Origin: a virus
Taxonomy: Duplodnaviria > Caudoviricetes
DNA length: 64,000 nucleotides
IMG/VR virus record: IMGVR_UViG_3300033121_001571
Direction: 5' to 3' (one strand)
Notes under the pieces: generated by a model
Database searches by the model: none
Told to the model about the DNA's origin: nothing
The model's input: the letters and a program-made list of their open reading frames with translations, nothing else
Shown: positions 7,717 through 26,333 of the stretch, one piece after another
Layout of the letters: every line of letters begins with the position of its first letter
How positions within the stretch are numbered: position 1 is the first letter of the stretch
Program-made: the position numbers and the translations under genes

Positions 7717-7902
7717 CTAACTCTTCTTGCTGTAAAGATCTCTGTGCCAACCTTCACCCTTGAGTAAAAAACTAGTTCCTCCAGAGATGAGTCTTTTCAG
7801 TTTTTGACCACATTTTTCACAATATCGATCAGAATCATCACTTATGTTGTGTTCTATCTCTGTGACCGTCTGACAACTCTTACACTCGTACTCGTAGATC
7901 AC
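7717..7902 (-). CDS. FmdB-family zinc-ribbon protein
   Basis: IYEYECKSC...CEKCG..LKRLIS..SFLLKGEGW..DLY; GTG start overlaps the DnaE-E stop. Confidence 0.88.
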   Translation of the reverse strand: MIYEYECKSCQTVTEIEHNISDDSDRYCEKCGQKLKRLISGGTSFLLKGEGWHRDLYSKKS

Positions 7903-8942
7903 TCGTTTACCTCTTTTAACTTCCACGTCGTGGTGGAGCACCCAAAATTGTTTCTCTCGACCTCTGCGAGGTGCAGATTGTATAGATTCACGTTTGATTT
8001 ATCTGAGAATCCCCACACGCTAAGTCGAACTGGTTTCGCGCCGAGACCGAGTGCAGATATGACAGCATAACTCTTTTTGTTCTTTGTCATTTTGATCTCT
8101 AAAGACGTGGGAACAAACCAAACAATGTTCTTGTCACCTTCTTCAAGGGTCTCAATCGGATTGATCTCTTTTGTCTCTAGCTTAGCTAACATCTGTGGGC
8201 TGACAACAGATGTCACGTCAAAACTTCCAAATAACTCGATCTGAAACTGTGCTTGTTCTACTTTTGTCCACTCTGGAACGTTATCTCTGTAATATTCAGC
8301 TAACTCTCTCATTCTCTCCACACCAGCATACGGATTCTTTTTTGGCGATTTCTTTATCTCGTCGTTGTGTTCAATCAACACCTTGAATGCTTGGTGCCAA
8401 TTGCTGAATAATTTTCCTTGGCCCACCGCATCAAGAGAACCCAAAGCTTTTATCTTGATCAGAGTCTCTAAGACTCTTTTATTGAACTTTGAGTGTCTCC
8501 ACGTGCCGTCAGAGTTGTACAGCATGTCTTCTATATTTTTGTACGGTCTGTTCTGCAAGATCTCTTGCACAGCCGCTTCGCCGATACTCTTACAAGAGTA
8601 AAATGACGGCATGAACTTTTTCCCTGGAAGCACTGTCCATTCGTCTGAAGCATAGTTGACATCAATCTGAGCTATGTCGTAGCCCAATTGTTTGATCTCT
8701 GAAAATGCTACTGCTTTCTTTTCAGGACTGTTTAACATAGACTCAACATACGCAGTCAACCACTCCTTTTCAAAGTACGTCATCAACCACGCACACCAGT
8801 AACTGTCGATCGCATAAGCAACTGCGTGACTGTTTGAAGTCAGAACACCATTTGCTAAATAGAACTGGTGATCTGGGTGATCAACTTCAAGATCATACGT
8901 TTGGTGTTTTCCGATGGGGGTTATTGATTTGATGTTACTCAT
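7899..8942 (-). CDS. dnaE: DnaE fragment E: IntC3 (37 aa) plus C-terminal Pol III alpha (HhH and OB regions)
   Basis: MSNIKSI...YDLEV..DHQFYLANGVLTSN|SHAVAYA; IDVNYA, KSIGEAAVQEILQNRPY, NKRVLETLIK..ALGS, TKNKKSYA. Confidence 0.93.
   Translation of the reverse strand: MSNIKSITPIGKHQTYDLEVDHPDHQFYLANGVLTSNSHAVAYAIDSYWCAWLMTYFEKEWLTAYVESMLNSPEKKAVAFSEIKQLGYDIAQIDVNYASDEWTVLPGKKFMPSFYSCKSIGEAAVQEILQNRPYKNIEDMLYNSDGTWRHSKFNKRVLETLIKIKALGSLDAVGQGKLFSNWHQAFKVLIEHNDEIKKSPKKNPYAGVERMRELAEYYRDNVPEWTKVEQAQFQIELFGSFDVTSVVSPQMLAKLETKEINPIETLEEGDKNIVWFVPTSLEIKMTKNKKSYAVISALGLGAKPVRLSVWGFSDKSNVNLYNLHLAEVERNNFGCSTTTWKLKEVNE
8832..8942 (-). other. Split intein 3, C-terminal part (IntC3)
   Basis: Block F/G motifs YDLEV...HQFYLANGVLTSN followed by Ser+1. 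Confidence 0.9.
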
Positions 8943-12607: not shown

Positions 12608-13701
12608 TCACTACAATAGTTATTTCCTTCACCACACGCAATAAAAGTACCTGGAATGACTTTTGAACAGTATGAATTTCCTAACTTAAACACACCAGGA
12701 CTTGGATTTTTCAAAATCTTGAACAGATTGTATATTACACGATCACTGAACTTACCTCCTTCTTTGTATGAGAATTGATCGTATGATATACGAATAAGGG
12801 TCCATCCGTGTTGCACTATGTGTTCATCAAGCAATCGATCCATATTCCTAACATCATTAAAAACTTTTTCTCCTTTTATGCGAGGTTCAAAATGAATTAT
12901 ACCATCAAATTCAACATAAATACGTGCTGTTTTATCAGCAATATCAACTTGTTTTCGATGTGATTTATTTGTAAATACACTTGATTTAACAATCTGATTA
13001 TGTTTGAATTCATAAGGACTAGCGGTTAACAACAACTCAAATAACATTAACTCTGGTTTACTGTGCCATTTAGAATGTGCGGCGAGGGTGCATTTTTCAT
13101 AGAACTCATCAAAATGAGTATTACGCCAAGCTGTCAGACGTGCTGTTCGAATTGCAAGGATCTCTGGTCGAGCTGACGTTTTTTTTGCAGTGATGCGTGA
13201 TAGTTCGCGGCCCCTTGGAGACGAATTTCTTGATGCCATAGCTTCAGCTCGGCGTTTACGTTCATTTGGATTCGCCATAACAGCAGTAGAAACTGCAACA
13301 CTCATCTTAGCCTTATATGCAGTCAAATCGTCGCCACGTTCTTTTGCACGCTTCAACCATGCAAAATTCTGACCACGTTTCTTAAACGCAAGCTGTGTAG
13401 TAAGCGAAGTGAGCTCAGCGTCTGGATATGTAGTTATGTACTCCTTCTTGCTCATGTCATGGACTTGTGTCAAGTGTTTTGTAAGAGTACGACCTATAAA
13501 TCCGCAAATTCGACAAGTAACTGTGTCGTTGGCTGAAAGAACAGTTACTAGACACGCTTTTACGTGTTTTTCGTAGGGTCGCTGGTAAGAAAAGTTCTTA
13601 CCGCATCGGTCACAACGATATTGTATCCCTTTTCGTTGATCATCCACAATGGTAGCATCTCTCCCGTTTCCTTCGTCCTGAATTTGTGATTCCACGTGCA
13701 C
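12559..13701 (-). CDS. Putative homing endonuclease (Zn fingers plus DUF559/Vsr-like PD-(D/E)xK domain), directly after IntN3
   Basis: YRCDRCGKNF...HVKAC and CRICG...KHLTQVH; SKPE...QVDIA...VEFDGIIHF...GWTLIRI. Confidence 0.8.
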   Translation of the reverse strand: MHVESQIQDEGNGRDATIVDDQRKGIQYRCDRCGKNFSYQRPYEKHVKACLVTVLSANDTVTCRICGFIGRTLTKHLTQVHDMSKKEYITTYPDAELTSLTTQLAFKKRGQNFAWLKRAKERGDDLTAYKAKMSVAVSTAVMANPNERKRRAEAMASRNSSPRGRELSRITAKKTSARPEILAIRTARLTAWRNTHFDEFYEKCTLAAHSKWHSKPELMLFELLLTASPYEFKHNQIVKSSVFTNKSHRKQVDIADKTARIYVEFDGIIHFEPRIKGEKVFNDVRNMDRLLDEHIVQHGWTLIRISYDQFSYKEGGKFSDRVIYNLFKILKNPSPGVFKLGNSYCSKVIPGTFIACGEGNNYCSDWCMSSDNLDLCLTQQ

Positions 13702-13910
13702 TTTACCTTTTCTCCAGTAGTGAGCTCTACTTCAACTAAGTCGAGAACACCGTGATCATGTTTCATGATCACGGGAATAATAATGTCATTTCCTGAAATC
13801 TCGTCTCTAGATCTGACTAGATCATTAGGGCAAACATCTTTTAACAACTTAGTCTCTCTGTAAGAGCCATCAAAATTATATATATTCAGAGGTTGTAAAA
13901 AGTACAAACT
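13560..13910 (-). other. Split intein 3, N-terminal part (IntN3, Ser1)
   Basis: Starts at SLYFL right after DnaE FNK; block B CTWNH; ORF ends with no IntC. Confidence 0.87.
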
Positions 13911-14282
13911 TTTATTGAAACCGTACCCAGCGAAATATAAGATCTTATCGTAAAGGTTGTTAGCAACATCAGCAGTGTAACCGTTCTTTATGCATCCTTG
14001 AACAAAGCTATCTCGCGTTTCTTGTGCAGCCTTCTTCGCCGCTTCACCGCCCGAGATGCTGCGCTTCATGATGGCGCGGCGAACCTCGTCACACTTGTCC
14101 TTCGGGAAGCCGGCCACCTTCTCGGCCAGTTCCATCACCTGCTCCTGAAAAATTATACAGTTGTGCACCAGAAGGCCATTTGCGAAGAAATTGTGGTTCT
14201 TCTTGACCTGGATGTCGTACACGGGCTGTGCAGGAGCACGCTTGATTGCACGGATCTTGATGGGAACTACATCAGGCATCAT
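13560..14282 (-). CDS. dnaE: DnaE fragment D: IntC2 + 83-aa extein + IntN3
   Basis: PVYDIQV..NHNFFANGLLVHN|CIIFQEQVMELA...FAGYGFNK|SLYFLQ...VELTTGEKVKCTWNHKF. Confidence 0.92.
   Translation of the reverse strand: MMPDVVPIKIRAIKRAPAQPVYDIQVKKNHNFFANGLLVHNCIIFQEQVMELAEKVAGFPKDKCDEVRRAIMKRSISGGEAAKKAAQETRDSFVQGCIKNGYTADVANNLYDKILYFAGYGFNKSLYFLQPLNIYNFDGSYRETKLLKDVCPNDLVRSRDEISGNDIIIPVIMKHDHGVLDLVEVELTTGEKVKCTWNHKFRTKETGEMLPLWMINEKGYNIVVTDAVRTFLTSDPTKNT
13999..14030. repeat. 32-bp direct repeat, copy 1 (copy 2 at 15429-15460)
   Basis: tgaacaaagctatctcgcgtttcttgtgcagc is identical at both sites. Confidence 0.95.
14160..14282 (-). other. Split intein 2, C-terminal part (IntC2)
   Basis: VYDIQV..NHNFFANGLLVHN followed by Cys+1. 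Confidence 0.92.
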
Positions 14283-14754
14283 CCACCTCGACAATATCGA
14301 ACTCATCGAAGCAACACACTTCTTGGTCGAGCTCGCCGCCTTTCAAACCCTCGAAAAGACCCGAACCCGTGCTACGATTGTAGAACATCGCATCATTGTT
14401 ACGATAATCGTCAATGAGTTTGACTTCAGTCCCAGCGTCGAACCATTCATCGGGACGAGAGATGTATTTGACACGCTTAACTGGTTGGAGAGGTGTAGAT
14501 GAAAAGAAGCCTTCCGCCCCATCACGCATCATCTTGACGTGGACAATTCTCTCGTTAAGATGATCTGCTTGCAGGCGTTCACCTTCGTCAACTAGCCTGA
14601 TCACATTGGGACATGCAGTCGTCTTCTCTACCCATAGTGGGTCAAGAGGCGACGGATGGTGTGGACACGCACGCCAGTCGTGTTGACGTTGACGCTCGAG
14701 CAGGCAAAACACACCCGTCAAGTGCGTGTAACAAACAACGTAATCCCTCATCAT
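14272..14754 (-). CDS. Hypothetical protein inside the insert
   Basis: 160-aa ORF overlapping both neighbours in operon-like fashion. Confidence 0.55.
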   Translation of the reverse strand: MMRDYVVCYTHLTGVFCLLERQRQHDWRACPHHPSPLDPLWVEKTTACPNVIRLVDEGERLQADHLNERIVHVKMMRDGAEGFFSSTPLQPVKRVKYISRPDEWFDAGTEVKLIDDYRNNDAMFYNRSTGSGLFEGLKGGELDQEVCCFDEFDIVEVDDA

Positions 14755-15179
14755 TCACACTCCTGTTCGCGATGCATTAAGCACGCAGCACATATATCGC
14801 GGCCAGGTGTTGACGTCCAAAATTGCTCGTGGCAATCAACACACGTTTGCGTTGGGCTGATGGACAACTTCGTTGCTACGCCGTGTGATGACATAGAACG
14901 AGACAACGCATCAGCGTCCAGCACAACGCGACGTGGGTTGATTTTCATTGCCAACGAACTTGCACATAGTTGACACACCGGTCCATGGACGTCCAACACA
15001 CGAGGACCATGATACTCAAGTTCCATATCGTTGCCCACTTCTTCATGGGCTCGAAACGTATCGAACCAATCGGCATAGGTGAGGTCCTCACGCTTAGCCA
15101 CTTCAGGATGTGACTTCAAGGTATTGATGAAATTCTTGAACGAGGTGAGCAGCTCTTCCTCGAAATCTTCGATCTTCAT
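14751..15179 (-). CDS. Hypothetical Cys-rich protein inside the insert
   Basis: CQLC, CVDC and CAAC motifs. Confidence 0.55.
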   Translation of the reverse strand: MKIEDFEEELLTSFKNFINTLKSHPEVAKREDLTYADWFDTFRAHEEVGNDMELEYHGPRVLDVHGPVCQLCASSLAMKINPRRVVLDADALSRSMSSHGVATKLSISPTQTCVDCHEQFWTSTPGRDICAACLMHREQECE

Positions 15180-15181
15180 GC

Positions 15182-15712
15182 CTAAATTGTCCTCAAGTTG
15201 TGTGGGTAGTTCACAGCCTCAGACCCCCAGACGCGTCTCACCACATAACCTCGAGCCTCAGCCGCGCGGGTGAATGATTCATCGAGTCGATACTGTCGCT
15301 TCATCTTGGACGTCAGTTCGTGCTTTTCTGGATTGCCGTGCCAGTAGTCGCCATCGAACTCTACGAGAATGTTCTCATTTGGAACGTAGAAATCGAACTC
15401 ATGGTTGATGCCTTCAACGTGGCATCTGTGAACAAAGCTATCTCGCGTTTCTTGTGCAGCTTTCTTTGCAGCCTCGCCGCCAGAGATGCTTCGTTTCATG
15501 ATAGCTCTGCGAACTTCGTCACACTTATCTTTTGGAAAACCCGCAACTTTTTCTGCGAGTTCCATTACGCTTTCTTGAAATATCAAACAATTATGAACTA
15601 AAATAGAATTTGCAAAAAAATTACCATTCTTCTTGATTTGAAGATCGTAAACGGGTTGTGAAGGAACACGTTTGACCGCACGGATTTTGACGGGAACTAC
15701 GTTAGACATCAC
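15182..15712 (-). CDS. Alternative fragment D': IntC2' + ~53 aa DnaE fused to a DUF559/Vsr-like nuclease domain
   Basis: VYDLQI..NGNFFANSILVHN|CLIFQESVMEL...RDSFV, then HEFDFYVPNENILVEFDGDYWHGNP...GYVVRRVWGSE. Confidence 0.85.
   Translation of the reverse strand: MMSNVVPVKIRAVKRVPSQPVYDLQIKKNGNFFANSILVHNCLIFQESVMELAEKVAGFPKDKCDEVRRAIMKRSISGGEAAKKAAQETRDSFVHRCHVEGINHEFDFYVPNENILVEFDGDYWHGNPEKHELTSKMKRQYRLDESFTRAAEARGYVVRRVWGSEAVNYPHNLRTI
15429..15460. repeat. 32-bp direct repeat, copy 2
   Basis: Identical to 13999-14030; marks the DnaE/nuclease fusion point. Confidence 0.95.
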
Positions 15713-15972
15713 TTGCCTTGTTGATCTGAAACTTTGATCTGAAACTCTTCGACGTTTGACTCATCTGCGCTATCTTCAACACAAAGCACTCGAAGATAAC
15801 GAATTGCACACGCTAAGAACTGTTCAGGAACCAAATTTGGTGTTTCGTGTTTTGGTACTATCTCTCTTGGAGAAAAAGTCTCTTCCACAGAGTCACACCA
15901 ATGTAAGATACCAGTTAGAGTGTTTGTTTTTACCATAAACACAAAACTACTGCACAGATACTTTCTGTTCAC
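15709..15972 (-). CDS. Hypothetical protein
   Basis: 87-aa ORF coupled to the D' start. Confidence 0.5.
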   Translation of the reverse strand: MNRKYLCSSFVFMVKTNTLTGILHWCDSVEETFSPREIVPKHETPNLVPEQFLACAIRYLRVLCVEDSADESNVEEFQIKVSDQQGK

Positions 15973-15997
15973 TTAAGTTTTAAGATCTAAACAGAGA

Positions 15998-16525
15998 TCA
16001 CAGATCAATAATGATATATTTGTCATTTCTTTTCATGACATTATCGCTAGATATGTCCCCACGCATTTTCACATAGATTCTCAAAAAATCTTTGAGATCA
16101 GAATCGGGCAGAGACTCTACGCTTTCTGGGTTGCTAACAACTTCATCTATGATGAATTTTTCATCTCTTGTCAGTTGATCTAACTTTTCCATCACAGCAT
16201 ACACTGCATAAACAATGTTATCACCCACTTCTTCATCATATCCTTTTAACTTGCCCACTTCAAAAATTTTCACAAATAGTTCAAAATCAGGAATAGACTT
16301 TAGTTTATTCAAATGATAATCAACGCCATCGCTGTCTGGAAACATCTCATATGTTGGCACAAGTTTTATCACTTTTCCTGCTGAATATTCCATGATAACT
16401 CCTTCGTTACCAAACGCAACCACGTTTCCAACGTTTGGAGGGAGGATTCCGTCTCTTTTAAGTTTAGGAATGATTGTTTCAATAAAGTATGAATCGTAAA
16501 AACCTTGGTTTCTTTTTGTAAACAT
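15998..16525 (-). CDS. Minimal protein-kinase-like protein
   Basis: FGNEGVI (G-loop), VIKL, VMEKL hinge, GDISSDNVM catalytic loop, IIIDL. Confidence 0.7.
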   Translation of the reverse strand: MFTKRNQGFYDSYFIETIIPKLKRDGILPPNVGNVVAFGNEGVIMEYSAGKVIKLVPTYEMFPDSDGVDYHLNKLKSIPDFELFVKIFEVGKLKGYDEEVGDNIVYAVYAVMEKLDQLTRDEKFIIDEVVSNPESVESLPDSDLKDFLRIYVKMRGDISSDNVMKRNDKYIIIDL

Positions 16526-16528
16526 CTT

Positions 16529-17413
16529 TTATCTGTTCCAATCTGATCTGTCTTTGATGTGTGCTTCAATCACAATGACTTTTCCCCTGATAGCATCTTC
16601 AAAATCTTTTCTTGCAGTTGAGACAATATTTTTTACATTAGAAAGAAGCTCATCTAACTTGGGATCACCCGTTTCATTATAGTGAAATCCTCGAGTGTCA
16701 AGAATAGCCTGAGTAACGATTTCTGATATTACGTCTACCCAGTTGTAATTTCTAAACGCATTAGTAACAGCTGATTTCATTGTCAGCGCAGACACAATTT
16801 TTGGCCAAAAATAAAATTTGAAATAATCGTTCATATATTCGTTTTTTTCATTTTTGAAAGCATCAATGAACATTTTGTTGATAACTTTCATATACTTTCC
16901 CATTACAGAAATATTTGAAGTTTCATCGATCATAGCGTGTATAATCATCCAAGGTGTAGAAAGAAATCCCTTTTGAAGATGTTCAACTAGTGGAACAAGG
17001 ATCGCAGCACCTTGTTTTCTTGCTTCTTCTAATTGAAGAATTCTGTTTGATGGAACTCCAAATCTAGCTAAAATACTAGCATCACTATATCTTTCACGCG
17101 TTCTATCAGATGTTCTTCCCCTGTTTGATGCCCACCATGTAAATGCTGGTACTACGTAGATTGGAACTGACAGGTTCTTGTATAATTTAATCGCACTGTT
17201 GTAAAAGTTTTTGTTGTCAAAAAATTTCTTGACTTCTTTTCTATCTTTTTCGACGTCAGCATCACTTGAATGATTCTTAGTTTGTAAGACATAGTCTGAT
17301 TTTGCATTAACAGTCCAATCTTCTTCTCCAGCTGGCTCAATTCCAGCTAAAGGAGCTTCTGAGATCACTGAAGATCTGATAAGAGATCGGAGTTCGCTAA
17401 GTTTGATTTTCAC
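16529..17413 (-). CDS. Hypothetical protein, paralog 1 (MKIKLSELRSLI leader)
   Basis: Extensive identity with 18110-18997; GTG at 17413 chosen from TATTTA spacing (ORF track start 17419). Confidence 0.85.
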   Translation of the reverse strand: MKIKLSELRSLIRSSVISEAPLAGIEPAGEEDWTVNAKSDYVLQTKNHSSDADVEKDRKEVKKFFDNKNFYNSAIKLYKNLSVPIYVVPAFTWWASNRGRTSDRTRERYSDASILARFGVPSNRILQLEEARKQGAAILVPLVEHLQKGFLSTPWMIIHAMIDETSNISVMGKYMKVINKMFIDAFKNEKNEYMNDYFKFYFWPKIVSALTMKSAVTNAFRNYNWVDVISEIVTQAILDTRGFHYNETGDPKLDELLSNVKNIVSTARKDFEDAIRGKVIVIEAHIKDRSDWNR

Positions 17414-17432
17414 AATCACTAAATATCAACAC
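17312..17432. repeat. 121-bp exact direct repeat, copy 1 (copy 2 at 18896-19016)
   Basis: Base-by-base comparison; covers the promoter motif, the paralog 5' end and the last codons of IntN2. Confidence 0.93.
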
Positions 17433-17711
17433 TTCATCACTGTCTGTCAAAGACCCAGCGTTTACCCACCCACGGTTCTTTGTCATGACTAAGTGGTCTT
17501 CAGTGACAGTGAGTCGTTTTCCGTCCTCTAACTCTATCTCGATCACGTCTCTTACACCGTTCGACACAGCAGCTACAACCACGTCACTCTCTATTTCAGC
17601 AGATTCCTCGTTGTATGACGGGAGAGTGACGCCGACCATCTGCTTATCAACGATTTCCTTGATAGTGATCTCACCGTTGTCTGTCATCACTCTTGAGTCA
17701 CCAGTTAAGCA
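17397..17711 (-). other. Split intein 2, N-terminal part (IntN2)
   Basis: Block A CLTGDSRV; block B TEDH. Confidence 0.93.
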
Positions 17712-18074
17712 ACTGTAAGTCTTCTCAAGAATCTTATTGATTCTATCGTCACCCCAGTCCATCTGCTTGTTGTTATTCTTAGCGTCAATATACAACTTGT
17801 CTACGTCAGCAGCAAGTGGGCCAGGACGATAGATCGAAGTCAGAGTCGCAATGTCAATGATGTTCTCTGGTTTTGCTTTGACAAACAGGCGCTGAGCGCC
17901 CTTGCCAGTGACTTGAAATATGCCAGCAAACTTTGCTTCTTCATAGACCTTATAGACTTCTGGATCTTCCAGATCCATCTTTGATGGATGCATGTGTTCG
18001 CTGTGCCACTCTTTGATCTCATCAAAAGAGATCTTATCATTTGCAACGTTGTTGACTGACTTTACTTTTGCCAC
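17397..18074 (-). CDS. dnaE: DnaE fragment C: short IntC-like strand + extein + IntN2
   Basis: GIFQ...TSIYRPGPL...KILEKTYS|CLTGDSRV...IELEDGKRLTVTEDHLVMT. Confidence 0.92.
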   Translation of the reverse strand: MAKVKSVNNVANDKISFDEIKEWHSEHMHPSKMDLEDPEVYKVYEEAKFAGIFQVTGKGAQRLFVKAKPENIIDIATLTSIYRPGPLAADVDKLYIDAKNNNKQMDWGDDRINKILEKTYSCLTGDSRVMTDNGEITIKEIVDKQMVGVTLPSYNEESAEIESDVVVAAVSNGVRDVIEIELEDGKRLTVTEDHLVMTKNRGWVNAGSLTDSDEVLIFSDCENQT

Positions 18075-18109: not shown

Positions 18110-18997
18110 TTAGCCTTGAATATGAGCTTCAATCACAATGACTTTTCCTCTGATAGCATCTTCAAAATCTTTTCTTGCAGTTGAGACAAGATCACTTATC
18201 TTTGCTAAGAGACTATCGATCTCTTGATCACCAGTCTTGTTGTAATGAAATCCTCGAGTGTCAAGAATAGCTTGCGTAAGAATTTCAGCTGCAATATCAT
18301 ACAACGAACGACCCTTAAACTTATAAACTCTAGCTGATTTCATCGTCAGTGAAGAAATAACACCTGGAAGCAGGTGGTTAAAATACCTTTCTTGTTTCTT
18401 GCTCTTAATTTGACCGTCAAAATCTTCGCCTTCTAAAAATAGATAAACGATCTCACTTACATACTTTCCCATGACAGACGACTCTGTCGATTCATCGATC
18501 ATAGCGTGGATGATCATCCAGGGCGTAGAAAGAAATCCTTTCTCAAGATTCTCAACTAGTGGAACAAAGATCGCTGCGCCTTGTTTTCTTGCTTCTTCTA
18601 AAGCTACGATCTTTTCTGGAGGTACACCAAACCCAGCTAAAATACTAGCATCTTCACTTCTTTCATAAGTTCTCTTAATGCGTCCTCTATCATCAAATTT
18701 AGATCCTCGTCCTGCAGCAAACCATGTAAATGCTGGCACTACGTAGATTGGAACCGACAGGTTCTTATACAACTTAATCGCGCTGCTACGAAAATTTTCA
18801 TTGTTAAAGAATTTTTTGACTTCTTCTCTATCTTTTTGAACAGTTGGCACATCATAATTTTTGAATCGAGCAATAGTCTTAGAGTCCATACCTTTAGTCC
18901 AATCTTCTTCTCCAGCTGGCTCAATTCCAGCTAAAGGAGCTTCTGAGATCACTGAAGATCTGATAAGAGATCGGAGTTCGCTAAGTTTGATTTTCAC
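18110..18997 (-). CDS. Hypothetical protein, paralog 2
   Basis: Paralog of 16529-17413; near-identical ends, divergent middle. Confidence 0.85.
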   Translation of the reverse strand: MKIKLSELRSLIRSSVISEAPLAGIEPAGEEDWTKGMDSKTIARFKNYDVPTVQKDREEVKKFFNNENFRSSAIKLYKNLSVPIYVVPAFTWFAAGRGSKFDDRGRIKRTYERSEDASILAGFGVPPEKIVALEEARKQGAAIFVPLVENLEKGFLSTPWMIIHAMIDESTESSVMGKYVSEIVYLFLEGEDFDGQIKSKKQERYFNHLLPGVISSLTMKSARVYKFKGRSLYDIAAEILTQAILDTRGFHYNKTGDQEIDSLLAKISDLVSTARKDFEDAIRGKVIVIEAHIQG

Positions 18998-19016
18998 AAT
19001 CACTAAATATCAACAC
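18896..19016. repeat. 121-bp exact direct repeat, copy 2
   Basis: Identical to 17312-17432 (offset 1584). Confidence 0.93.
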
Positions 19017-19040: not shown

Positions 19041-19340
19041 TCACCAGTAACATGTACAGAACAAAGTGTTAACTCCTTCAATGTCTTTTTTTGAAAAAGA
19101 GTTATGGTGTAAAAAACTAACGAGTATATTTTTCTCTATGTCAAACACAAATTTCAATGTACTTTTTATTGGGTATGCAAAAAGGTTCGGAAATTTAGAA
19201 TTAAGTTCTCCCACGTACAAACCGAATATCTTTTCATTTTTGTCTAATAAAAGAGGTCTGTTGAAATTTGTTCTATGATAATAGACTCTTCCACAAGGAA
19301 GCACTCGAACAAGATTTCCAACTAAAAACTCATTTTTCAT
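19041..19340 (-). CDS. Small PH...CxC family protein (array member 6, C-terminally short)
   Basis: VRVLPCG...GLYV...VFDI...CTCYW*. Confidence 0.6.
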   Translation of the reverse strand: MKNEFLVGNLVRVLPCGRVYYHRTNFNRPLLLDKNEKIFGLYVGELNSKFPNLFAYPIKSTLKFVFDIEKNILVSFLHHNSFSKKDIEGVNTLFCTCYW

Positions 19341-19349
19341 TTAGGAACT

Positions 19350-19700
19350 TTAAGTTTTCTTAGTAGAGTTATGGTGTGTTACGTAACAACTCATACAACA
19401 ACAATGAAGTGCGCTATAACATAGTTCATCACTGCACTGTATAAAATCAGATGTCACAAATTTGACAAGTTTTTTACTTAACAGATCAAACAAAATAACA
19501 CTAACAAAATTCACTGGTCTGTTAAACTTATAACTGTTTATATCTTTTCTGTGAAGATCTGTCACTGAGATCAAATAACCATCAAGATCTTGGTGATCAA
19601 GACTTGTGTCTTCTTCCTCTTTACAGATAGCGTTAACAGCACCGTGAGCAATTATTTTCACAACGGTGTTTTCTAAGCTCTTAGTTAGTATCATCTTCAT
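19350..19700 (-). CDS. Small PH...CxCxxC family protein (array member 5)
   Basis: KIIAHG...GYLISV...LFDL...CCCMSC. Confidence 0.65.
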   Translation of the reverse strand: MKMILTKSLENTVVKIIAHGAVNAICKEEEDTSLDHQDLDGYLISVTDLHRKDINSYKFNRPVNFVSVILFDLLSKKLVKFVTSDFIQCSDELCYSALHCCCMSCYVTHHNSTKKT

Positions 19701-19748
19701 CTAAACACTTGTACTAGTGAGTGCTTTAAAATGAGATCAAAGAATTCA

Positions 19749-20087
19749 CTAATGCTTTCGTTTCTTATCGAAGTGTTTTACAACACAACTTTTGCAGTAA
19801 CAAGTCCATTTCGATTGATCGCTAATAAAGTTTATGATAGAACCAGACGTTCTAAAGATAACAACTGATTTAACACAGACATCAAACATTGTAACTCTCA
19901 CAAAAAACTTGTGTGGATGGTTTGCAAATCTGTTACGATTAGGTAGATCAGACACTGAAATCACATAACCATAACAAATAGTTATGTTCTCTAAACTCTC
20001 ATTTTGTGTCTTTCTAAGAACTCTGACTCTACCATGTGGGTGAACTCTTATGAGAGTGTTAATTGTAGATGTAATGTTCTTAATCAT
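19749..20087 (-). CDS. Small PH...CxCxxC family protein (array member 4)
   Basis: RVHPHG...GYVISV...MFDV...CYCKSC. Confidence 0.68.
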   Translation of the reverse strand: MIKNITSTINTLIRVHPHGRVRVLRKTQNESLENITICYGYVISVSDLPNRNRFANHPHKFFVRVTMFDVCVKSVVIFRTSGSIINFISDQSKWTCYCKSCVVKHFDKKRKH

Positions 20088-20111
20088 TTTTAACGTTTTT
20101 CAAAACTAACG

Positions 20112-20429
20112 CTAATAAAAGATCTTACAACAAACGTTTGTGTACAGATCTATGCAATAAGAACAGCCACACCCAACAATGTTTTTATTGTTGTTGTGTG
20201 CATATCTCATAGCACTGATCAACTGAAATTCAATTAACAAATTTTCACTCAGATCAAAAATAGTGATCGCTGACTTTGTTTTAGACAGAGAACAAATTGA
20301 AACAACGATACCAAAAAATATCTGTCCACGAGGGAAAATTGACTTCTCACGAGAAACACCTTTTGAAATAAAGCCAGTTTCTCCAAAACAATGAGGAGCA
20401 AAAAATTTGAGATCACCAACTTGAGTCAT
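20112..20429 (-). CDS. Small PH...CxCxxC family protein (array member 3)
   Basis: FAPHC...GIVVSI...IFDL...CGCSYC. Confidence 0.65.
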   Translation of the reverse strand: MTQVGDLKFFAPHCFGETGFISKGVSREKSIFPRGQIFFGIVVSICSLSKTKSAITIFDLSENLLIEFQLISAMRYAHNNNKNIVGCGCSYCIDLYTNVCCKIFY

Positions 20430-20438
20430 TGACTACCT

Positions 20439-20753
20439 TTAAGGTATTGGCAAAACGCTTTTACAACTCAAACAAGTACACCTTAAAACATTGTTCACAG
20501 AAACAAGTTCACTCGGCGTAGAAAACTTCATAACGTTCATGTTCATAAATGAAAACATCGTGATCTTGTCTTGCGTTCGAGAAAGAACAAGACCAACGTG
20601 AATGAACGTTGGATTGTGTAAGTACAACGAATACCAAAGAGATAGATCGTGGGGTATTATCTGAATAATCTGTCCCACAGCAAAAACGTGTCCAAGCACT
20701 TTGGCGCTCAATGATTTGTGTGCCTCTACTAAATACTCATACACTCGAAACAC
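20439..20753 (-). CDS. Small PH...CxCxxC family protein (array member 2)
   Basis: IIPHD...GLVLS...MFSF...CTCLSC. Confidence 0.62.
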   Translation of the reverse strand: MFRVYEYLVEAHKSLSAKVLGHVFAVGQIIQIIPHDLSLWYSLYLHNPTFIHVGLVLSRTQDKITMFSFMNMNVMKFSTPSELVSVNNVLRCTCLSCKSVLPIP

Positions 20754-21040
20754 TCACACTTAATCACGCTTAACACGTTATCATAAAGTGATTGTTCAGT
20801 TATCGAAAACTGCACTAACTTACCTAATTTGATGTCTAAAAAAACAACAAGTACCATACCCTCAGACTTCCACTCAGTGTTCAAAACAATACCAATTAAA
20901 GCTGAATAAGGATGAAGAGTAAATGTTTTAAACGTTTTTTCTCCAATGATATCAATCTCACTGTCGTGAGGATGAACTTTGATCACTTTAGCAATAATTC
21001 TATTTTTCACAATTTTCTCACATAGACAACGTTTTTGCAA
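20729..21040 (-). CDS. Small PH...CxCxxC family protein (array member 1)
   Basis: KVHPHD...GIVLN...FLDI...CECFEC; start probably GTG near 21010. Confidence 0.62.
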   Translation of the reverse strand: MQKRCLCEKIVKNRIIAKVIKVHPHDSEIDIIGEKTFKTFTLHPYSALIGIVLNTEWKSEGMVLVVFLDIKLGKLVQFSITEQSLYDNVLSVIKCECFECMSI

Positions 21041-22827
21041 CCATAGATCTTAAATAACTTGTGTTCAAATGCTAGACTCTCTTGAGAAGCTATGTTTGGA
21101 ATAGAACGCACAAGAAAACGATCAAGTCTGTGGTGACAATCTGTCCACCAAAATCTCGGTTTTGTCTCGTGACTCACAACAAAACCTGAACTCAAATAAC
21201 CGTTACCAGAACCACCCAAACGTGTATCACGATATGTCATGATTCTGTCAAAAGAGTTTTCTTTAGCCCAAGTTGCGGCAGCGCTGATCAGTTTTGACAT
21301 TCCTCCCACAACTACCGTGTTCTTCAAAAAAGCAACTCTAGCAATCTCTAGAGTCTTATCACTCCATTTTTTGATCTGGTGTGGCTTTCTAACAGTCAGT
21401 GTTGCTACAGTCTCGCCATTTTCTGTCTCAAGAATAAATCCTTTTGAAGCTGGCACGTTACCATCGATGTGATTTTCAACAAGAAATTCCGCAACAGATG
21501 CTGGATGAACTGCACGTACTCTGAGCCTTCGAGCAAAGATCTTCTTTGCTTTTTGCAGTTTGACTCTGATCATGCTCTTGATGATCTCTCGCTTGGTGAG
21601 ATCTTGCCATTCGTCTTCAAACACATGTAACAAAGAAGTGTTTGTTGTAGAGGCTAGATCTGACTTTTTCTGGTGATACTCACTGTCTGATATCACAGCA
21701 TCAGAGTGCCAGTATAATCCATTACACTCAATCGCAAATCTCTGATCACTTGACAGTATGTCTAGCTCTAACGGAGCTATTCGTTTTCGATCATTAAGCG
21801 TTGCTCCCGGATCGAACGTCAAGACGTATTCATAGATCTCACTCTGCCACCTTGAAATGACACGTGGATTGCAAGTTGAACACAGCTTTCCCTTACATAG
21901 AGATGACAGTTTTACTTGACAAGTCTCTCCGCACTCTTTACAAGAGACAACAATAAGACTTTGAAATCCAGCAACTTCATATGAATCAACATTCCATTTA
22001 TCTTTCACCGATTCAAGTCTCTCAGCGATCATCTCATGAGTGATTCTAAACGGTGAATTCACTCCCAACTCTATGAGTCTTTTTCTTGTCTGAATTATCT
22101 GTTGTTTGACTCTGTCAGCACAAGCTTTGTGTACCCAGTGACTGGATTTGACACTCTCACTGAGGTTTTCAGAACGTCTCTTTATTCTATCATCAGTCTC
22201 AGACGTTTGTCCGTGTTGAGTCCAGTGCTTTTCTTTCTTCCATTTTTCTGTGAGTGTCTTAGATATCTGAACAGCCGCTTGAGCTACTGAAGCACTGTTT
22301 TCTTTCGTCTGCCCAGAGCGCCAGTGACCGTTCTTTTTTATGAAATCTCTGCACTTTGTTGCAGCGATTCTCACAGACTCGCTCGTCTGTTCTGTCAGAC
22401 CCTTGTTCCAAGCTGGAGTGTTATTTCGTTTTCTAGTTTCGGCTCCACGAAGCTGAGAGTTTTTCTTGCTACACTTTCCGCAGAGCCTCTCATAACCAGA
22501 CTGAAATGACAAGAACTTGACAGGCCCAAAACACTGAGTGCACGGTCCTGGGTGAGAGACAAACAACAAATAAGCATCTTCAGCTAAGACACTGTGAACT
22601 TTTGCTAAGTGAGCTCGAACACTGTTAAGACTTGCTTTCATCTGTTGAGAGCAGATCGGACACTTCGAAAGAAGTGATATCGTCGGAGGGCCTGAGGTCC
22701 CTCGCGAAAACTTTTCCTCTTGCGGTGATAACTTCTTGGTCTCCAAACATTCTTTTTGTTGATCCGTCTTCAAGACAGATCTCAATCCATCCTCGTCGTT
22801 GTCTTTCATCTTTGATGATGAGTTCAA
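21007..22827 (-). CDS. Putative Hef-like homing endonuclease (Zn fingers, PD-(D/E)xK domain, C-terminal GNAT-like domain)
   Basis: CPIC..HLAKVH, PAWNKGLT repeats, ELDI...AIECNGLYWHS, HVFEDEW, EIAR...VVGGMSKL; start uncertain. Confidence 0.8.
   Translation of the reverse strand: MNSSSKMKDNDEDGLRSVLKTDQQKECLETKKLSPQEEKFSRGTSGPPTISLLSKCPICSQQMKASLNSVRAHLAKVHSVLAEDAYLLFVSHPGPCTQCFGPVKFLSFQSGYERLCGKCSKKNSQLRGAETRKRNNTPAWNKGLTEQTSESVRIAATKCRDFIKKNGHWRSGQTKENSASVAQAAVQISKTLTEKWKKEKHWTQHGQTSETDDRIKRRSENLSESVKSSHWVHKACADRVKQQIIQTRKRLIELGVNSPFRITHEMIAERLESVKDKWNVDSYEVAGFQSLIVVSCKECGETCQVKLSSLCKGKLCSTCNPRVISRWQSEIYEYVLTFDPGATLNDRKRIAPLELDILSSDQRFAIECNGLYWHSDAVISDSEYHQKKSDLASTTNTSLLHVFEDEWQDLTKREIIKSMIRVKLQKAKKIFARRLRVRAVHPASVAEFLVENHIDGNVPASKGFILETENGETVATLTVRKPHQIKKWSDKTLEIARVAFLKNTVVVGGMSKLISAAATWAKENSFDRIMTYRDTRLGGSGNGYLSSGFVVSHETKPRFWWTDCHHRLDRFLVRSIPNIASQESLAFEHKLFKIYGCKNVVYVRKL
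22625..22792 (-). other. Degenerate Hint/intein half-domain (no block A; block-B TxxH replaced by FGDQ)
   Basis: IEICLEDGSTKRMFGDQEVITARGKVFARDLRPSDDI aligns by eye to IntN2 IEIELEDGKRLTVTEDHLVMTKNRGWVNAGSLTDSDEV. Confidence 0.7.
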
Positions 22828-23512
22828 TTGTTCTCTCTACCAGTCTAAGCGTTTCAAGGCCAAGCAGATCATATTTAATGAAATTTCCGATCGCCTCTAG
22901 ATGTTTATAATTTACTCCCTCTACCCAAGGACTCTGAGGTTCCCCTTTTGATGTGATAAGAGGCATCTTATCAGGAAGATCGTCAGCTATTAGCACTCCA
23001 CCCGCGTGACGACCCAAAGAACGACCCTGTTTGAACAAGACATTCATAGACTCACCCACTTCAGGGTGCTTGTCAATGAAGTCTTTGAAAGGCTTATCGT
23101 ACTTCAGAGCATCTTCATACGTGAGAACAAACAAGTTCTTGTCATCACCGTGCTTTGTTGTTGCTTTTCTGACGCTTTGTTCAACTGTCTTCGTGGCAGC
23201 ATTGACTTCTTCGAACGGTATGCCATAGAACTTGCTGAGATCTTTTAGAAGAGATTTGACTTTAAATGCGTTGACATTTGAGATCGGAACAACGTTTTCA
23301 TATCCAAAGAAATTTCTCAGCTGATCAAGCACGAGATCTCTGTTAGCAAGATCAGAATCGATATCGGGAGACCCAGAGTTATGCGTTAAAACCCAATTGG
23401 TGTTGTCTTGTGATATCCAAAATGTATGATTATTCTCAACTTCTATATCAATAAGACGTGTACTTTCTTCAACTATTTGAATCGATTCTATCTTAGCTGT
23501 GTTTGTTAACAA
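22625..23512 (-). CDS. dnaE: DnaE fragment B: IntC1 + catalytic palm region + degenerate half-intein tail
   Basis: IDIEVENNHTF...VLTHN|SGSPDIDSD; GRHAGGVLI; IKYDLLGLETL. Confidence 0.93.
   Translation of the reverse strand: MLTNTAKIESIQIVEESTRLIDIEVENNHTFWISQDNTNWVLTHNSGSPDIDSDLANRDLVLDQLRNFFGYENVVPISNVNAFKVKSLLKDLSKFYGIPFEEVNAATKTVEQSVRKATTKHGDDKNLFVLTYEDALKYDKPFKDFIDKHPEVGESMNVLFKQGRSLGRHAGGVLIADDLPDKMPLITSKGEPQSPWVEGVNYKHLEAIGNFIKYDLLGLETLRLVERTIELIIKDERQRRGWIEICLEDGSTKRMFGDQEVITARGKVFARDLRPSDDITSFEVSDLLSTDESKS
23378..23512 (-). other. Split intein 1, C-terminal part (IntC1, 45 aa)
   Basis: KIESI...DIEVENNHTF...THN followed by Ser+1. Confidence 0.92.
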
Positions 23513-24482
23513 GACTTTCCTTATGTTTAGAAATTAAATGTTTTGTATTCTTGTAATTACGGTTTTCTAAATTTGGAATTACCTTATAAAGACCTTCATT
23601 ACGTAATGAAGCATAAAAATCTTCCATATAGATAACATCTATAATAATTCCTTGTGCAATTAACAAATTGCGTATTTTCATATTAGAATTTAACAATTTT
23701 GAAAACAGTGAATCACTTTCTCTAACACCTTTTAATTCAATATAACGATTTTCATTGGGAAAGAAAAAATCAGGCGTATAACAAACATCCCTACCTTCAC
23801 TTGTTACATGAAAAGTTTTGCTTTCATAAAGCGGTACATTTGATTTATAGATACAATATCGATAAAAATCTGCCTCAAATGAACTTTTGAAATAAGGACT
23901 ATTCTCAATATCTAAACGCCATCCAGATCTACCATTTATATGGATTGCTATCATTCCTTTTGATTGAGCTTCAAAAGTACATTTTTTACTACAAAATCTC
24001 ATTTTATAACTCTGCTTAGTAGATTTTACTAAGCCACATACTTGGCACACACATTTTATTTTGTTTTCTTTACTCTTTTGCGTACATTTAGCACTACAAT
24101 ACTTTCTTTTTTGATTTTTTGATTCAAAAATCACATTACAATAATTACACGTCATTTGAACAATTGGATTCTTAGTTAGAGTCTTAGAAGTTTCTATTTT
24201 AGAACACGCTCTAGAACAAAATTTTCGCCCCAATTTAGATTGGGGCACAAAGTATTCTTTGTTACATAACAGACAATTTTTCATAAACCGACCTACAATA
24301 AAATTTCTAACGCTAGAGCGCTTTTGTTTGTTTTTAACTTGACACTCAGTAGAACAGTACATTCTAGCTAACTTGCTAGTTGAACCTTTACCCACGCCAG
24401 AGCACTCAATTTGAAATATTTTTTCACAATATTTACAAGTTTTCTTTACTATGATCATAGTGGTACGTATACAACAGATCAT
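23493..24482 (-). CDS. Putative free-standing homing endonuclease between IntN1 and IntC1
   Basis: Four CxxC...(F/Y)CS..C zinc-ribbon repeats; FKSSFE...YTPDF...IELKG (PD-(D/E)xK); overlaps both flanking dnaE fragments. Confidence 0.82.
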   Translation of the reverse strand: MICCIRTTMIIVKKTCKYCEKIFQIECSGVGKGSTSKLARMYCSTECQVKNKQKRSSVRNFIVGRFMKNCLLCNKEYFVPQSKLGRKFCSRACSKIETSKTLTKNPIVQMTCNYCNVIFESKNQKRKYCSAKCTQKSKENKIKCVCQVCGLVKSTKQSYKMRFCSKKCTFEAQSKGMIAIHINGRSGWRLDIENSPYFKSSFEADFYRYCIYKSNVPLYESKTFHVTSEGRDVCYTPDFFFPNENRYIELKGVRESDSLFSKLLNSNMKIRNLLIAQGIIIDVIYMEDFYASLRNEGLYKVIPNLENRNYKNTKHLISKHKESLVNKHS

Positions 24483-24738
24483 CAGTTGTCAATTCATGTG
24501 TTCGTTTCTTTATGAATTTTCCATCCCCAGCACAAACTAACCACTCATGATTTTCAGAACACTTAAATGTCGTACCATTTACCTTAATAAGGTACGTTTT
24601 TGTAACATGTTGCACAGTTTTATATGTTACTCTTTGTAAAGAACCGTCTTGTGTCAAGACTTTATCTCCAACTTTAATTTCATCAAGAGACGTAGTTTTA
24701 TTTTTTTCTAAAAGAACACGAGTATTTGGTTCTAAACA
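24433..24738 (-). other. Split intein 1, N-terminal part (IntN1)
   Basis: Block A CLEPNTRV...IKVGDKVLT; block B CSENH. Confidence 0.93.
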
Positions 24739-26253
24739 CCTATGAACAGAGAGAAATCTGCTAAACGGTAGGTCCCACTTGATTGGATCTAAGTCTGTGA
24801 TCTCTAAAACATAGTTAACAAGTGAACCCGCACCAGAGCCTCTACCAGGACCAACTAGAGTGACGCTTCTAGCAAGTTCCATGATCTTCTGATAAGAGAT
24901 GAAATAATCTGAGTTTTTCATCTGCTTGATGACAGACAACTCTTCTTTAAGTCTCTCTACGTACTCTTCTTTCTCTGCAAGGCCCTTCTTGATCATGCCT
25001 TCTTTGCACAGTTTACACAAGTGACTGAAAGACGAAGAGTCTTCTGGGACAAGTCTTTTGACAGGGAACTTTGGCGTCCTATCAGGTTCAACAACGCCAA
25101 TCACTTGGTGAGCAATGTCGTGTGTTCTCTCAATCGCTGCAGCGATAACTTCGTCATCATAGAACGAAGTGCCCTCTTTAGAACGCAAGTACTCATCCCA
25201 CATCTGAGAAGCGTTCTTTGGATACAATTCACACTTCAAATCATCTTTAGACTTCGGAAGAGAGTCAGGTGAGTATGTCTTGTAGTTCATAAACCCAAGC
25301 TTCTTGTATAACTCTCTTTCTTTCCAGACGTTTGGATTATAGTAGTGAGCATCACCAGTGACCACAAGTTGATCTGTGACACCGTTTCTCTTGGCAAATT
25401 CTAGTATTGATCTGTTTATCAGATTCTGAGCAAGAATTCTGTTAAATTGCAGTTCAAGATAACAGTTGCCCTTTCCAACAATATCTGTCATCAGATCATA
25501 GAAGTTTCCAACTGCTGTAACACACTTCTCCATAAGAGACGGATCGTCCAACAACGACTGGTCCATAGAATCAAACTTGATCTTCTGAAGTTCTTGAAAC
25601 ACGTTATAACTTGGAAGTCCACCCAAGCAAGCAGAGGTGACAATGATGTCACCATCTTTTGCAGCCTCACGAAGGATGCGAGAATCAATTCTGGGGAACC
25701 TATAAAAACCCTTTAAGTAGCCTAAAGCTACTGCCTGAAACATTTTCTGGAGCCCACGTGATGACTTTGGCAGTACCACCAGGTGATGGCGGCGGTTGAT
25801 TGGGTTGAAGTGCTTTGTCGTCTTTGTCTCTTCTTCATCTTCAATAGTCAAAGCATTTGAAACTTCAATGTCTTCAGTCTCATCATTTTGATCAACAACA
25901 GCAATGAGCTTCGTCTGAAGCTCTTCTTGTTTTTTCAGCAGTTTTGCTGCTGTTTTTTTCTCTGTTGCCGCTAGATCGTGTTCCTCTTTGTCTCTCTGCC
26001 ACTGTTGTAGATCAGGGTGAAAATATGCTTCTACGCCTGGGATATACTTGAAGTTTTCCCCCGCCGATTTCCACTTTTCAACAAATAATTGAGCGTGAGC
26101 ATAAGAGTTGCAGTGACCGTGCTCAGTGATTGCGTGTGCGTCTAGACCGTTTTCTTTGCAAAACTTGAAGTGTTCGTCTGGGTATCCCAAACCATCAAAT
26201 GCAGAAAACCCTGTGTGGGCGTGAAGTCCAACGAATTTCTTGGGAAATGGCAC
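24433..26253 (-). CDS. dnaE: DnaE fragment A: PHP domain + N-terminal polymerase region + IntN1
   Basis: FVGLHAHTGFSAFDG, ITEHG, GVEAY, SACLGG, TGDAHY, GPGRGSGAGSLV, FSRFLSVHR|CLEPNT; GTG start at 26253 assumed (ORF track 26307). Confidence 0.95.
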   Translation of the reverse strand: MPFPKKFVGLHAHTGFSAFDGLGYPDEHFKFCKENGLDAHAITEHGHCNSYAHAQLFVEKWKSAGENFKYIPGVEAYFHPDLQQWQRDKEEHDLAATEKKTAAKLLKKQEELQTKLIAVVDQNDETEDIEVSNALTIEDEEETKTTKHFNPINRRHHLVVLPKSSRGLQKMFQAVALGYLKGFYRFPRIDSRILREAAKDGDIIVTSACLGGLPSYNVFQELQKIKFDSMDQSLLDDPSLMEKCVTAVGNFYDLMTDIVGKGNCYLELQFNRILAQNLINRSILEFAKRNGVTDQLVVTGDAHYYNPNVWKERELYKKLGFMNYKTYSPDSLPKSKDDLKCELYPKNASQMWDEYLRSKEGTSFYDDEVIAAAIERTHDIAHQVIGVVEPDRTPKFPVKRLVPEDSSSFSHLCKLCKEGMIKKGLAEKEEYVERLKEELSVIKQMKNSDYFISYQKIMELARSVTLVGPGRGSGAGSLVNYVLEITDLDPIKWDLPFSRFLSVHRCLEPNTRVLLEKNKTTSLDEIKVGDKVLTQDGSLQRVTYKTVQHVTKTYLIKVNGTTFKCSENHEWLVCAGDGKFIKKRTHELTTDDLLYTYHYDHSKENL

Positions 26254-26300
26254 GAGTTTGTGAAGATATACTGCTAGTAAGCAAACAGTTACACAGCACC

Positions 26301-26333
26301 AAAACAAAAGGCAGGAACTGTATAGTTCCTGCC
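26301..26333 (-). terminator. Intrinsic terminator upstream of dnaE-A
   Basis: GGCAGGAACT/AGTTCCTGCC 10-bp stem followed by TTTTGTTTT on the minus strand. Confidence 0.75.

Follow-up and report, generated by a model that had tools for sequence, protein, structure and literature searches.

Probable scar of a homing-endonuclease cassette in a fractured phage dnaE gene: a displaced gene start beside its foreign replacement

In the 64,000-nucleotide (nt) phage record IMGVR_UViG_3300033121_001571, called the window here in its full length, one DnaE (DNA polymerase III alpha subunit) is encoded as five pieces, A to E. Fragment C ends in the N-terminal half of a split intein (IntN2), and this half faces two candidate C-terminal halves (IntC). 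One of them, IntC2, begins fragment D (13560-14306), and the other, IntC2′, begins D′ (15182-15712), an open reading frame (ORF) in which an IntC and a stretch of DnaE extein run into a nuclease domain. All genes of the window around these two lie on the minus strand, and the public sequencing runs that contain the locus carry a wastewater label. The virus is probably a large, uncultured phage of wastewater; a protein search places the window's own D protein on a contig of 284 kb. We consider it probable (roughly 0.8) that D′ is the recombination scar of a homing-endonuclease cassette that invaded the gene and replaced the 5′ end of D.

RESULTS

Structure of D′ and its relation to D

D′ is an uninterrupted ORF of 176 codons made up of three parts. 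Residues 1 to 41 (15590-15712; GC content at third codon positions [GC3], 0.32) form an IntC half of resident, native type that ends in VHN. Residues 42 to 94 (15431-15589; CLIFQES...RDSFV) are a stranded piece of resident DnaE extein, and residues 95 to 176 (15182-15430; 82 codons and the stop) are the 3′ part of an endonuclease gene, which is fused in frame at a GTTCA microhomology and retains the FDF...EFDGDYWHGN core. An earlier note on this DNA had described D′ as sharing ∼53 DnaE residues with D before switching in frame to a nuclease, with HN/C kept in both IntC copies. Both descriptions hold: the switch falls after ...RDSFV, and VHN/C is retained in D and D′ alike. The two proteins share 83 identities over 101 positions (82%; BLASTP, E = 3e-61), and their DNA forms a 290-nt repeat with 77% identity and a spacing of 1430 nt. 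This repeat terminates in an exact 32-nt repeat (13999-14030 and 15429-15460), the left copy of which contains the last 30 nt of the stranded extein.

Synonymous sites are saturated between D and D′ (pS of 0.70 in the IntC part and 0.99 in the extein before the 32-nt block), and the corresponding nonsynonymous values (pN) are 0.15 and 0.05. Composition differs as well. GC3 is 0.32 to 0.38 in D′, which resembles the resident genes, and 0.66 to 0.79 at the start of D; in the GC profile, a block of ∼0.50 stands out at ∼14000-15430 within a genome of 0.38. Because synonymous sites are saturated and GC3 differs, D and D′ are not recent duplicates, and tandem duplication within the genome followed by divergence was rejected. 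By these measures, D′ and D are xenologues.

IntC2′ and IntC2 are 73% identical, and the resident IntN2 is 57 to 65% identical to the IntN2 of higher-GC relatives. The former value is in line with the latter, and the differences of IntC2′ are therefore those expected of lineage divergence. This comparison identifies IntC2′ as the putative co-evolved, native partner of IntN2 and the IntC2 carried by the working D as foreign.

An imported GC-rich block shared with donor-type phages

Scanning viral contigs with D revealed donor-type phages, represented by the IMG/VR contigs L001, L002, and L004 (GC content, 0.52 to 0.57). Their gene order is fragment C (with IntN2), a 246-amino-acid (aa) zinc-finger and Vsr-like endonuclease, ORF142, ORF160, and fragment D (with IntC2). 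From 15431 down to 14034, the window is colinear with these three loci at 77 to 99% nt identity; to the right of 14034, identity is ∼70%, and to the left of 15431, it is lost. These data indicate that positions 14031-15428 of the window are an imported GC-rich block.

The working D is accordingly of two kinds of DNA. Its 5′ end (14031-14279), consisting of IntC2 (14160-14279) and the first ∼43 extein codons, is donor-like, with 87 to 94% nt identity to L001 and L004 and ∼70% past 14034. The remainder (13560-14030) is of resident type and comprises the right copy of the 32-nt repeat, the extein up to ...GYGFNK, and IntN3. Between D and D′ lie two apparent passengers of the cassette, ORF142 (14751-15179), which has three CxxC pairs, and ORF160 (14272-14754). 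Both are 85 to 95% identical to their counterparts in the intact cassettes of L001, L002, and L004, and neither matched a Pfam or PHROG family. These two ORFs accompany the endonuclease in the three donor-type loci; L005, L011, and L022 have neither, and there the endonuclease adjoins D.

The two junctions of the imported block

Read base by base, the resident extein at the left junction has ...GATAGCTTTGTTCA, and the donor endonuclease gene has ...GATAACGTCGTTCA at codon ∼164. The switch in D′ falls at GTTCA, where 5 nt match exactly and an extended comparison matches 12 of 16. The frame is preserved, and this motif is also the 3′ end of the left 32-nt repeat copy. At the right junction, the 32-nt block and all sequence 3′ of it are of resident type, and the sequence directly 5′ of it is of donor type. 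The donors differ from the 32-nt block at many third positions, and both copies in the window are of resident type. This pattern points to a genuine duplication of 32 nt of resident DNA.

Contigs from several samples span the left junction, namely, the Joint Genome Institute (JGI) assemblies L076 to L079 and L081 and the Logan contigs L080 and those of runs X1 to X3. For the right junction, the spanning contigs are L077 and L079 from JGI and Logan contigs of X1 to X3. Because contigs from several samples and two assembly sources span them, both junctions are real and not assembly errors. As a separate observation, L076 (3760-4237) contains a second D copy that also breaks inside the 32-nt block (...GATAGCTTTGT followed by GCGCGG...); past the break lies unrelated, very GC-rich DNA encoding a protein without assignment. 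This break is either a chimeric assembly or a further rearrangement at the same hot spot.

Strain variation at the replaced end

D′ is present in six other wastewater contigs, L076 to L081, and the ORF is uninterrupted and in frame in all seven copies. The strains and the window show essentially no difference in the resident parts (fragment C; three genes between IntN2 and IntC2′, namely, o296, o175, and o87; and the first 94 codons of D′). In contrast, the ORF142/ORF160 region (14272-15179) is hypervariable. In L077 and L079, both flanks are ∼100% identical to the window, with 100% identity in the resident remainder of D, and the stretch 14010-15050 is only 76 to 97% identical. Divergence from the window in the cassette interior and the imported D 5′ end amounts to 5 to 25%. 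L076, which has the upstream flank only, varies from ∼15280 onward and diverges after 14002. Thus, the right boundary at ∼14010 is common to L077 and L079, and the left boundaries are at ∼15050 in these two contigs and at ∼15280 in L076. In L077 and L079, strain diversity is confined to the replaced end and has a fixed boundary. Such a signature has been described for WHO elements, which replace a gene end repeatedly (PMC7282813), and for gene hybrids made by endonuclease ORFs in fungal mitochondria (PMC3630166).

The earlier note proposed the conservation of D′ in relatives as a check. The ORF is uninterrupted wherever it was found, and the chimera is confined to one near-clonal population; among 5.8 billion protein clusters, only the 99%-identical P0001 otherwise covers both halves of D′. 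Since the seven copies are near-identical in the resident-derived half, selection is not readable from them.

A model for replacement of the D 5′ end

A foreign gene end stands beside an endonuclease gene in this locus, and the native end is displaced yet retained. In our model, D′ would be the original 5′ end of the phage's D gene, with the native IntC2′ and 53 extein codons, and the cassette would come from a higher-GC related phage. The lesion would be a double-strand break or a broken replication end near D codon 102, for which the incoming endonuclease is a possible cause, with a cut site near 13999-14030, and its repair would have copied from the donor with a template switch. The copied DNA would comprise the 3′ third of the endonuclease gene, ORF142, ORF160, the donor IntC2, and ∼43 donor extein codons. 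On the right, a homologous crossover would have taken place in the most conserved stretch of dnaE, directly 5′ of the 32-nt resident block; on the left, an illegitimate join at GTTCA would have linked the resident extein to endonuclease codon ∼164, in frame by chance. The working D would now be a hybrid in which a foreign IntC2 precedes a resident body. In sister strains, later exchange with other cassette alleles would have repeatedly replaced the same segment.

The nuclease part of D′

The nuclease part of D′ is 78 to 86% identical to the C-terminal third of the 246-aa zinc-finger and Vsr-like endonucleases. In full-length relatives, two C2H2 zinc fingers precede the nuclease domain. D′ begins only at the position that matches residue ∼164 and lacks both zinc fingers as well as helices 8-21 and 31-44 of the domain model; it has neither the N-terminal DNA-binding region nor the whole catalytic core of a complete endonuclease. 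Within the retained part, every family-invariant column is kept (FDF ... EFDGDYWHGN ... W.S).

A domain model of the endonuclease family (predicted local distance difference test [pLDDT], 78.7) gave as its top Foldseek matches I-Bth0305I (3r3p; E = 1e-3) and Escherichia coli Vsr (1vsr and 1cw0), with a probability of 1.0 and template modeling (TM) scores of 0.41 to 0.57. Pfam Vsr and MTES_1575 scored below threshold only. The fold match supports membership in the Vsr-like family, for which the sequence profiles alone are insufficient. A PDB sequence search with the 131-aa domain returned no matches, and the full-length profile returned a mass of eukaryotic zinc-finger matches. We found no detectable similarity between the nuclease part of D′ and the neighboring 380-aa endonuclease. 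Truncated and without DNA-binding zinc fingers, the D′ endonuclease is probably inert, and no site-specific activity is expected of it.

IntC2′ as a potential partner of IntN2

Fragment C (17397-18074), which belongs to the resident, low-GC lineage, carries extein up to ...KTYS and IntN2 from Cys122 onward (∼17400-17711). It matches Pfam DNA_pol3_finger (E = 7e-24) and Intein_splicing (E = 3e-8), C122 and the TxxH block are invariant in an alignment with relatives, and the fragment is ∼100% identical among strains. The claim that IntN2 faces two IntC candidates is supported. In D′, block G is present as His40-Asn41/Cys42, with each residue conserved in 31 of 32 homologues, and block F Asp23 (32 of 32) is kept. 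At the block F His position, D′ has Gly30, and the homologues have His (28 sequences), Asn (3 sequences), or Lys (1 sequence). We take Gly30 to correspond to F:13, based on the D118/H125 spacing of Npu DnaE. Asp at F:4 and His at F:13 are assisting residues and have been termed "less conserved" (PMC4031507). With Gly30, D′ does not have the complete pair.

The profile PF14890 (Intein_splicing) scored D′ at 27.6 bits (E = 2.9e-6), below the cutoff of 35.8, and D at 47.2. The earlier note had pointed to three substitutions in D′ at usually conserved positions and suggested that D′ may simply be decaying. Among these, QES (7 of 32 homologues) and AN-S (1 of 32) are ordinary variants, the latter in the full-length D homologue P0016, which has LIFQES as well; only Gly30 is unique to D′. 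Decay is thus only partly right as a description: the cited substitutions are for the most part lineage variation, and every copy has an uninterrupted ORF.

A complex model of IntN2 (fragment C residues 119 to 225) with D′ residues 1 to 52 gave an interface score (ipSAE) of 0.71, and its best control gave 0.01. Of 80 solved complexes, 58 reach this mark, as do 2 of 110 mismatched pairs. The partner had a pLDDT of no less than 70, and the runs, for which we supplied our own alignments, showed at least 89% agreement in their contacts. Likeness to solved split inteins may, however, account for the pass. Upstream of D′ are a Shine-Dalgarno-like AAGG and a TGATG stop-start overlap with o87. Together, these features suggest that D′ may well be produced and able to dock on fragment C, and competition between IntC2′ and D for IntN2 is mechanistically possible. 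The predicted peptides across the spliced junctions are TYSCLIFQESVMELAEK for C with D′ and TYSCIIFQEQVMELAEK for C with D.

In four wastewater metatranscriptome runs, contigs cover D′ at a depth that is flat (∼1000-2000) over every gene and compatible with DNA carry-over. RNA-library contigs give neither strand nor level, and transcription is neither shown nor excluded by them. None of the contigs from these four runs joins across the 1430-nt repeat.

Weighing the explanations

Several points speak against a cassette scar. An exact bridging pattern for an empty-site or deletion allele had no match in viral and metagenome contigs, although these collections seem to be without relevant samples; the order of events is therefore read from composition and similarity alone. 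A metagenome scan guided by the IntC2′ protein gave a best match of 67% identity, but it also missed the known D′ contigs, so that absence from it is uninformative. The right boundary shared by strains may be the cleavage site of incoming endonucleases, or it could equally be just the end of usable homology. Moreover, because 32 nt of resident DNA were duplicated, the event would have required a template switch or two resident molecules, which is more complex than a simple two-ended repair of a double-strand break. Finally, the in-frame fusion, the uninterrupted ORF in seven of seven copies, and the AAGG and TGATG signals also fit a maintained gene.

Such a gene might be expressed and under selection, giving IntN2 a second partner with a native IntC. 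As a decoy or switch, this partner would titrate fragment C, or trans-splicing would yield a useful chimera of the DnaE finger and the nuclease. Polymerase assembly would be tuned or poisoned by the diversion of fragment C into this finger-domain nuclease or into a stalled complex. Either the phage or the selfish cassette would exert this control, for instance, over co-infecting relatives with a cross-reacting IntN2. We regard this possibility as improbable. The frame is open in every copy, but the copies represent one near-clonal population, and the essential invariance of their resident-derived half leaves no selection signal. The IntC is native and has HN/C and the block F Asp, but Gly replaces the block F His, a splicing-assisting residue (PMC4031507). 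The complex model separates well from its controls, a result that may reflect memory of solved split inteins, and the context for translational coupling is retained; a stoichiometric sink for an essential replicase piece, however, would more likely be a cost than a benefit, and a single IntC suffices in relatives. Likewise, the nuclease part has all its family-invariant residues, but it is missing the zinc fingers and the first core helices, and its junction appears to be a microhomology accident within an endonuclease gene. The decoy or switch that the earlier note proposed found no support: D′ is a one-off chimera, and replacement of the D 5′ end by a cassette explains it. As a cassette scar, D′ may still divert some fragment C into a dead-end product, since it probably retains the original translation signals and a native IntC capable of docking on IntN2. 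Such diversion reads as a tolerated cost of invasion by a selfish element rather than as a designed switch.

Site-specific integration, in which the 32-nt direct repeats would be the attL and attR of an element carrying a replacement gene end, as in tRNA-gene islands, is very unlikely. A 1.4-kb foreign block by which the interrupted gene is restored does lie between exact direct repeats, but the repeats are resident sequence and not that of an element, and the left one leads into the interior of an endonuclease gene instead of an element end. The block has no integrase or recombinase (ORF142 and ORF160 matched no family), and the donors hold the same genes, free of repeats, in a normal fractured-gene gap. 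Least credible is an assembly artifact in which reads of two co-occurring phages were joined to give D′: the cassette region is polymorphic, contigs break there, and L076 switches to unrelated DNA at the same site, but the 5 nt shared at the left junction are too few for a k-mer assembler to jump, and contigs of several samples span this junction, as L077, L079, and X1 to X3 span the right one.

Other features of the fractured dnaE locus

The remaining pieces of DnaE are fragment A (24433-26307), with a C-terminal IntN1; fragment B (22625-23512), with IntC1 at its start; and fragment E (7899-8942), with IntC3 at its start. The gaps between the pieces are occupied by zinc-finger and nuclease genes, and the neighborhood also encodes a ribonucleotide reductase and a DnaB-like helicase. 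The resident genes between IntN2 and IntC2′ (15709-17419) are o296 (16529-17419), o175 (15998-16525), and o87 (15709-15972); no known family was assigned to them, and they had no match in the higher-GC relatives L001 to L005. A viral contig search with o175 yielded zero relatives, and a blastn search of the locus against 50,697 phage records yielded zero matches.

Fragment C is flanked by two paralogues of ∼296 aa (16529-17419 and 18110-19003) that have in common an exact 121-nt direct repeat (17312-17432 and 18896-19016) and are only ∼73 to 80% identical outside it. Contigs from RNA and DNA runs contain a joint between these paralogues that goes back 1538. Much of the gap between B and C is taken up by six small paralogous ORFs in a row (19041-21040; ∼100 to 116 aa, with Cys-rich C termini), to which no family was assigned. 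A 606-aa gap protein (21007-22827) has zinc-finger-like motifs, a Vsr-like ECNGLYWHS, and weak C-terminal Pfam matches to Mom (E = 0.0018) and GNAT; L003 has a 599-aa homologue in the equivalent place.

The break between B and C (22625-22760 and 18030-18074) is without a canonical intein. The C terminus of B is an IntN-like tail missing the usual blocks, and the N terminus of C (MAKVKSVNNV) has no HN/C. In relatives such as L006 to L010, the B and C parts adjoin with no comparable gap. IntN3 of fragment D (13560-13910) starts with Ser1 (FNK followed by SLYF), where relatives have C, SC, or TC; in L004 to L010, there is no intein at this position. In L003 (1039-6037), fragments A and B are split further by extra (split) inteins, and two of the B pieces are separated by an endonuclease gene of 577 aa on the opposite strand. 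What looked like a second IntC-nuclease chimera in L003 is such an extra split intein in fragment B and not a scar.

DISCUSSION

Fractured genes, in which a split intein is combined with a free-standing homing endonuclease of the Vsr-like (EDxHD) type, are known from phage replication genes, including dnaE (Dassa et al. 2009, PMC2677866; I-Bth0305I, PMC3239194). The locus described here conforms to this arrangement: dnaE is broken by split inteins, zinc-finger and Vsr-like endonuclease genes lie in the gaps, and the endonuclease domain model matches I-Bth0305I and Vsr. L001, L002, and L004 have the textbook layout at this very site. The window differs in that the endonuclease is truncated and fused to a second, stranded IntC-extein, which leaves one IntN facing two IntC halves; we found no mention of a duplicate IntC-extein copy in PMC2677866.

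We see the closest analogues in fungal mitochondrial gene hybrids and yeast WHO elements, placed here inside a fractured gene. In fungal mitochondria, mobile endonuclease ORFs (mORFs) make gene hybrids, as in Allomyces atp6 and Glomus atp6, atp9, cox2, and nad3 (PMC3630166). There, as here, an endonuclease gene brings a foreign gene end, the native end stays as a displaced duplicate, and the two copies are identical or nearly so in protein and strongly diverged in DNA; in-frame fusions of host gene and endonuclease ORF also occur. The phage case is a mirror image, since the 5′ end was replaced and the endonuclease lies upstream, and it concerns a phage rather than a mitochondrion. In addition, its stranded end holds a split-intein half that can interact with another gene product, and its endonuclease is truncated at the junction.

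In yeast, repeated homing of WHO elements keeps replacing one end of FBA1 (Coughlan et al. 2020, PMC7282813). In both systems, alleles match at ∼99% to one side of a fixed point and far less to the other, and both have displaced gene fragments and decaying endonuclease genes beside the working gene. WHO elements have an intact endonuclease, a defined homology fragment, and demonstrated cleavage at the boundary, whereas cleavage in the phage is a prediction, and the first junction looks accidental (microhomology).

Should D′ prove to be a selected second partner of IntN2, regulated competition between split-intein partners would have its first natural example. As a scar, the locus would show, base by base, how a selfish endonuclease cassette overwrites the start of an essential, already fractured phage replicase gene and leaves the old start behind. 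The working D, which appears to rely on a foreign IntC with the resident IntN, would be a natural test of split-intein cross-compatibility, and the native IntC on a dead-end protein would make a natural competition of two IntC halves for one IntN. Homing by replacement of a gene end, known from fungal mitochondria and yeast WHO elements, would thereby extend to the fractured genes of phages.

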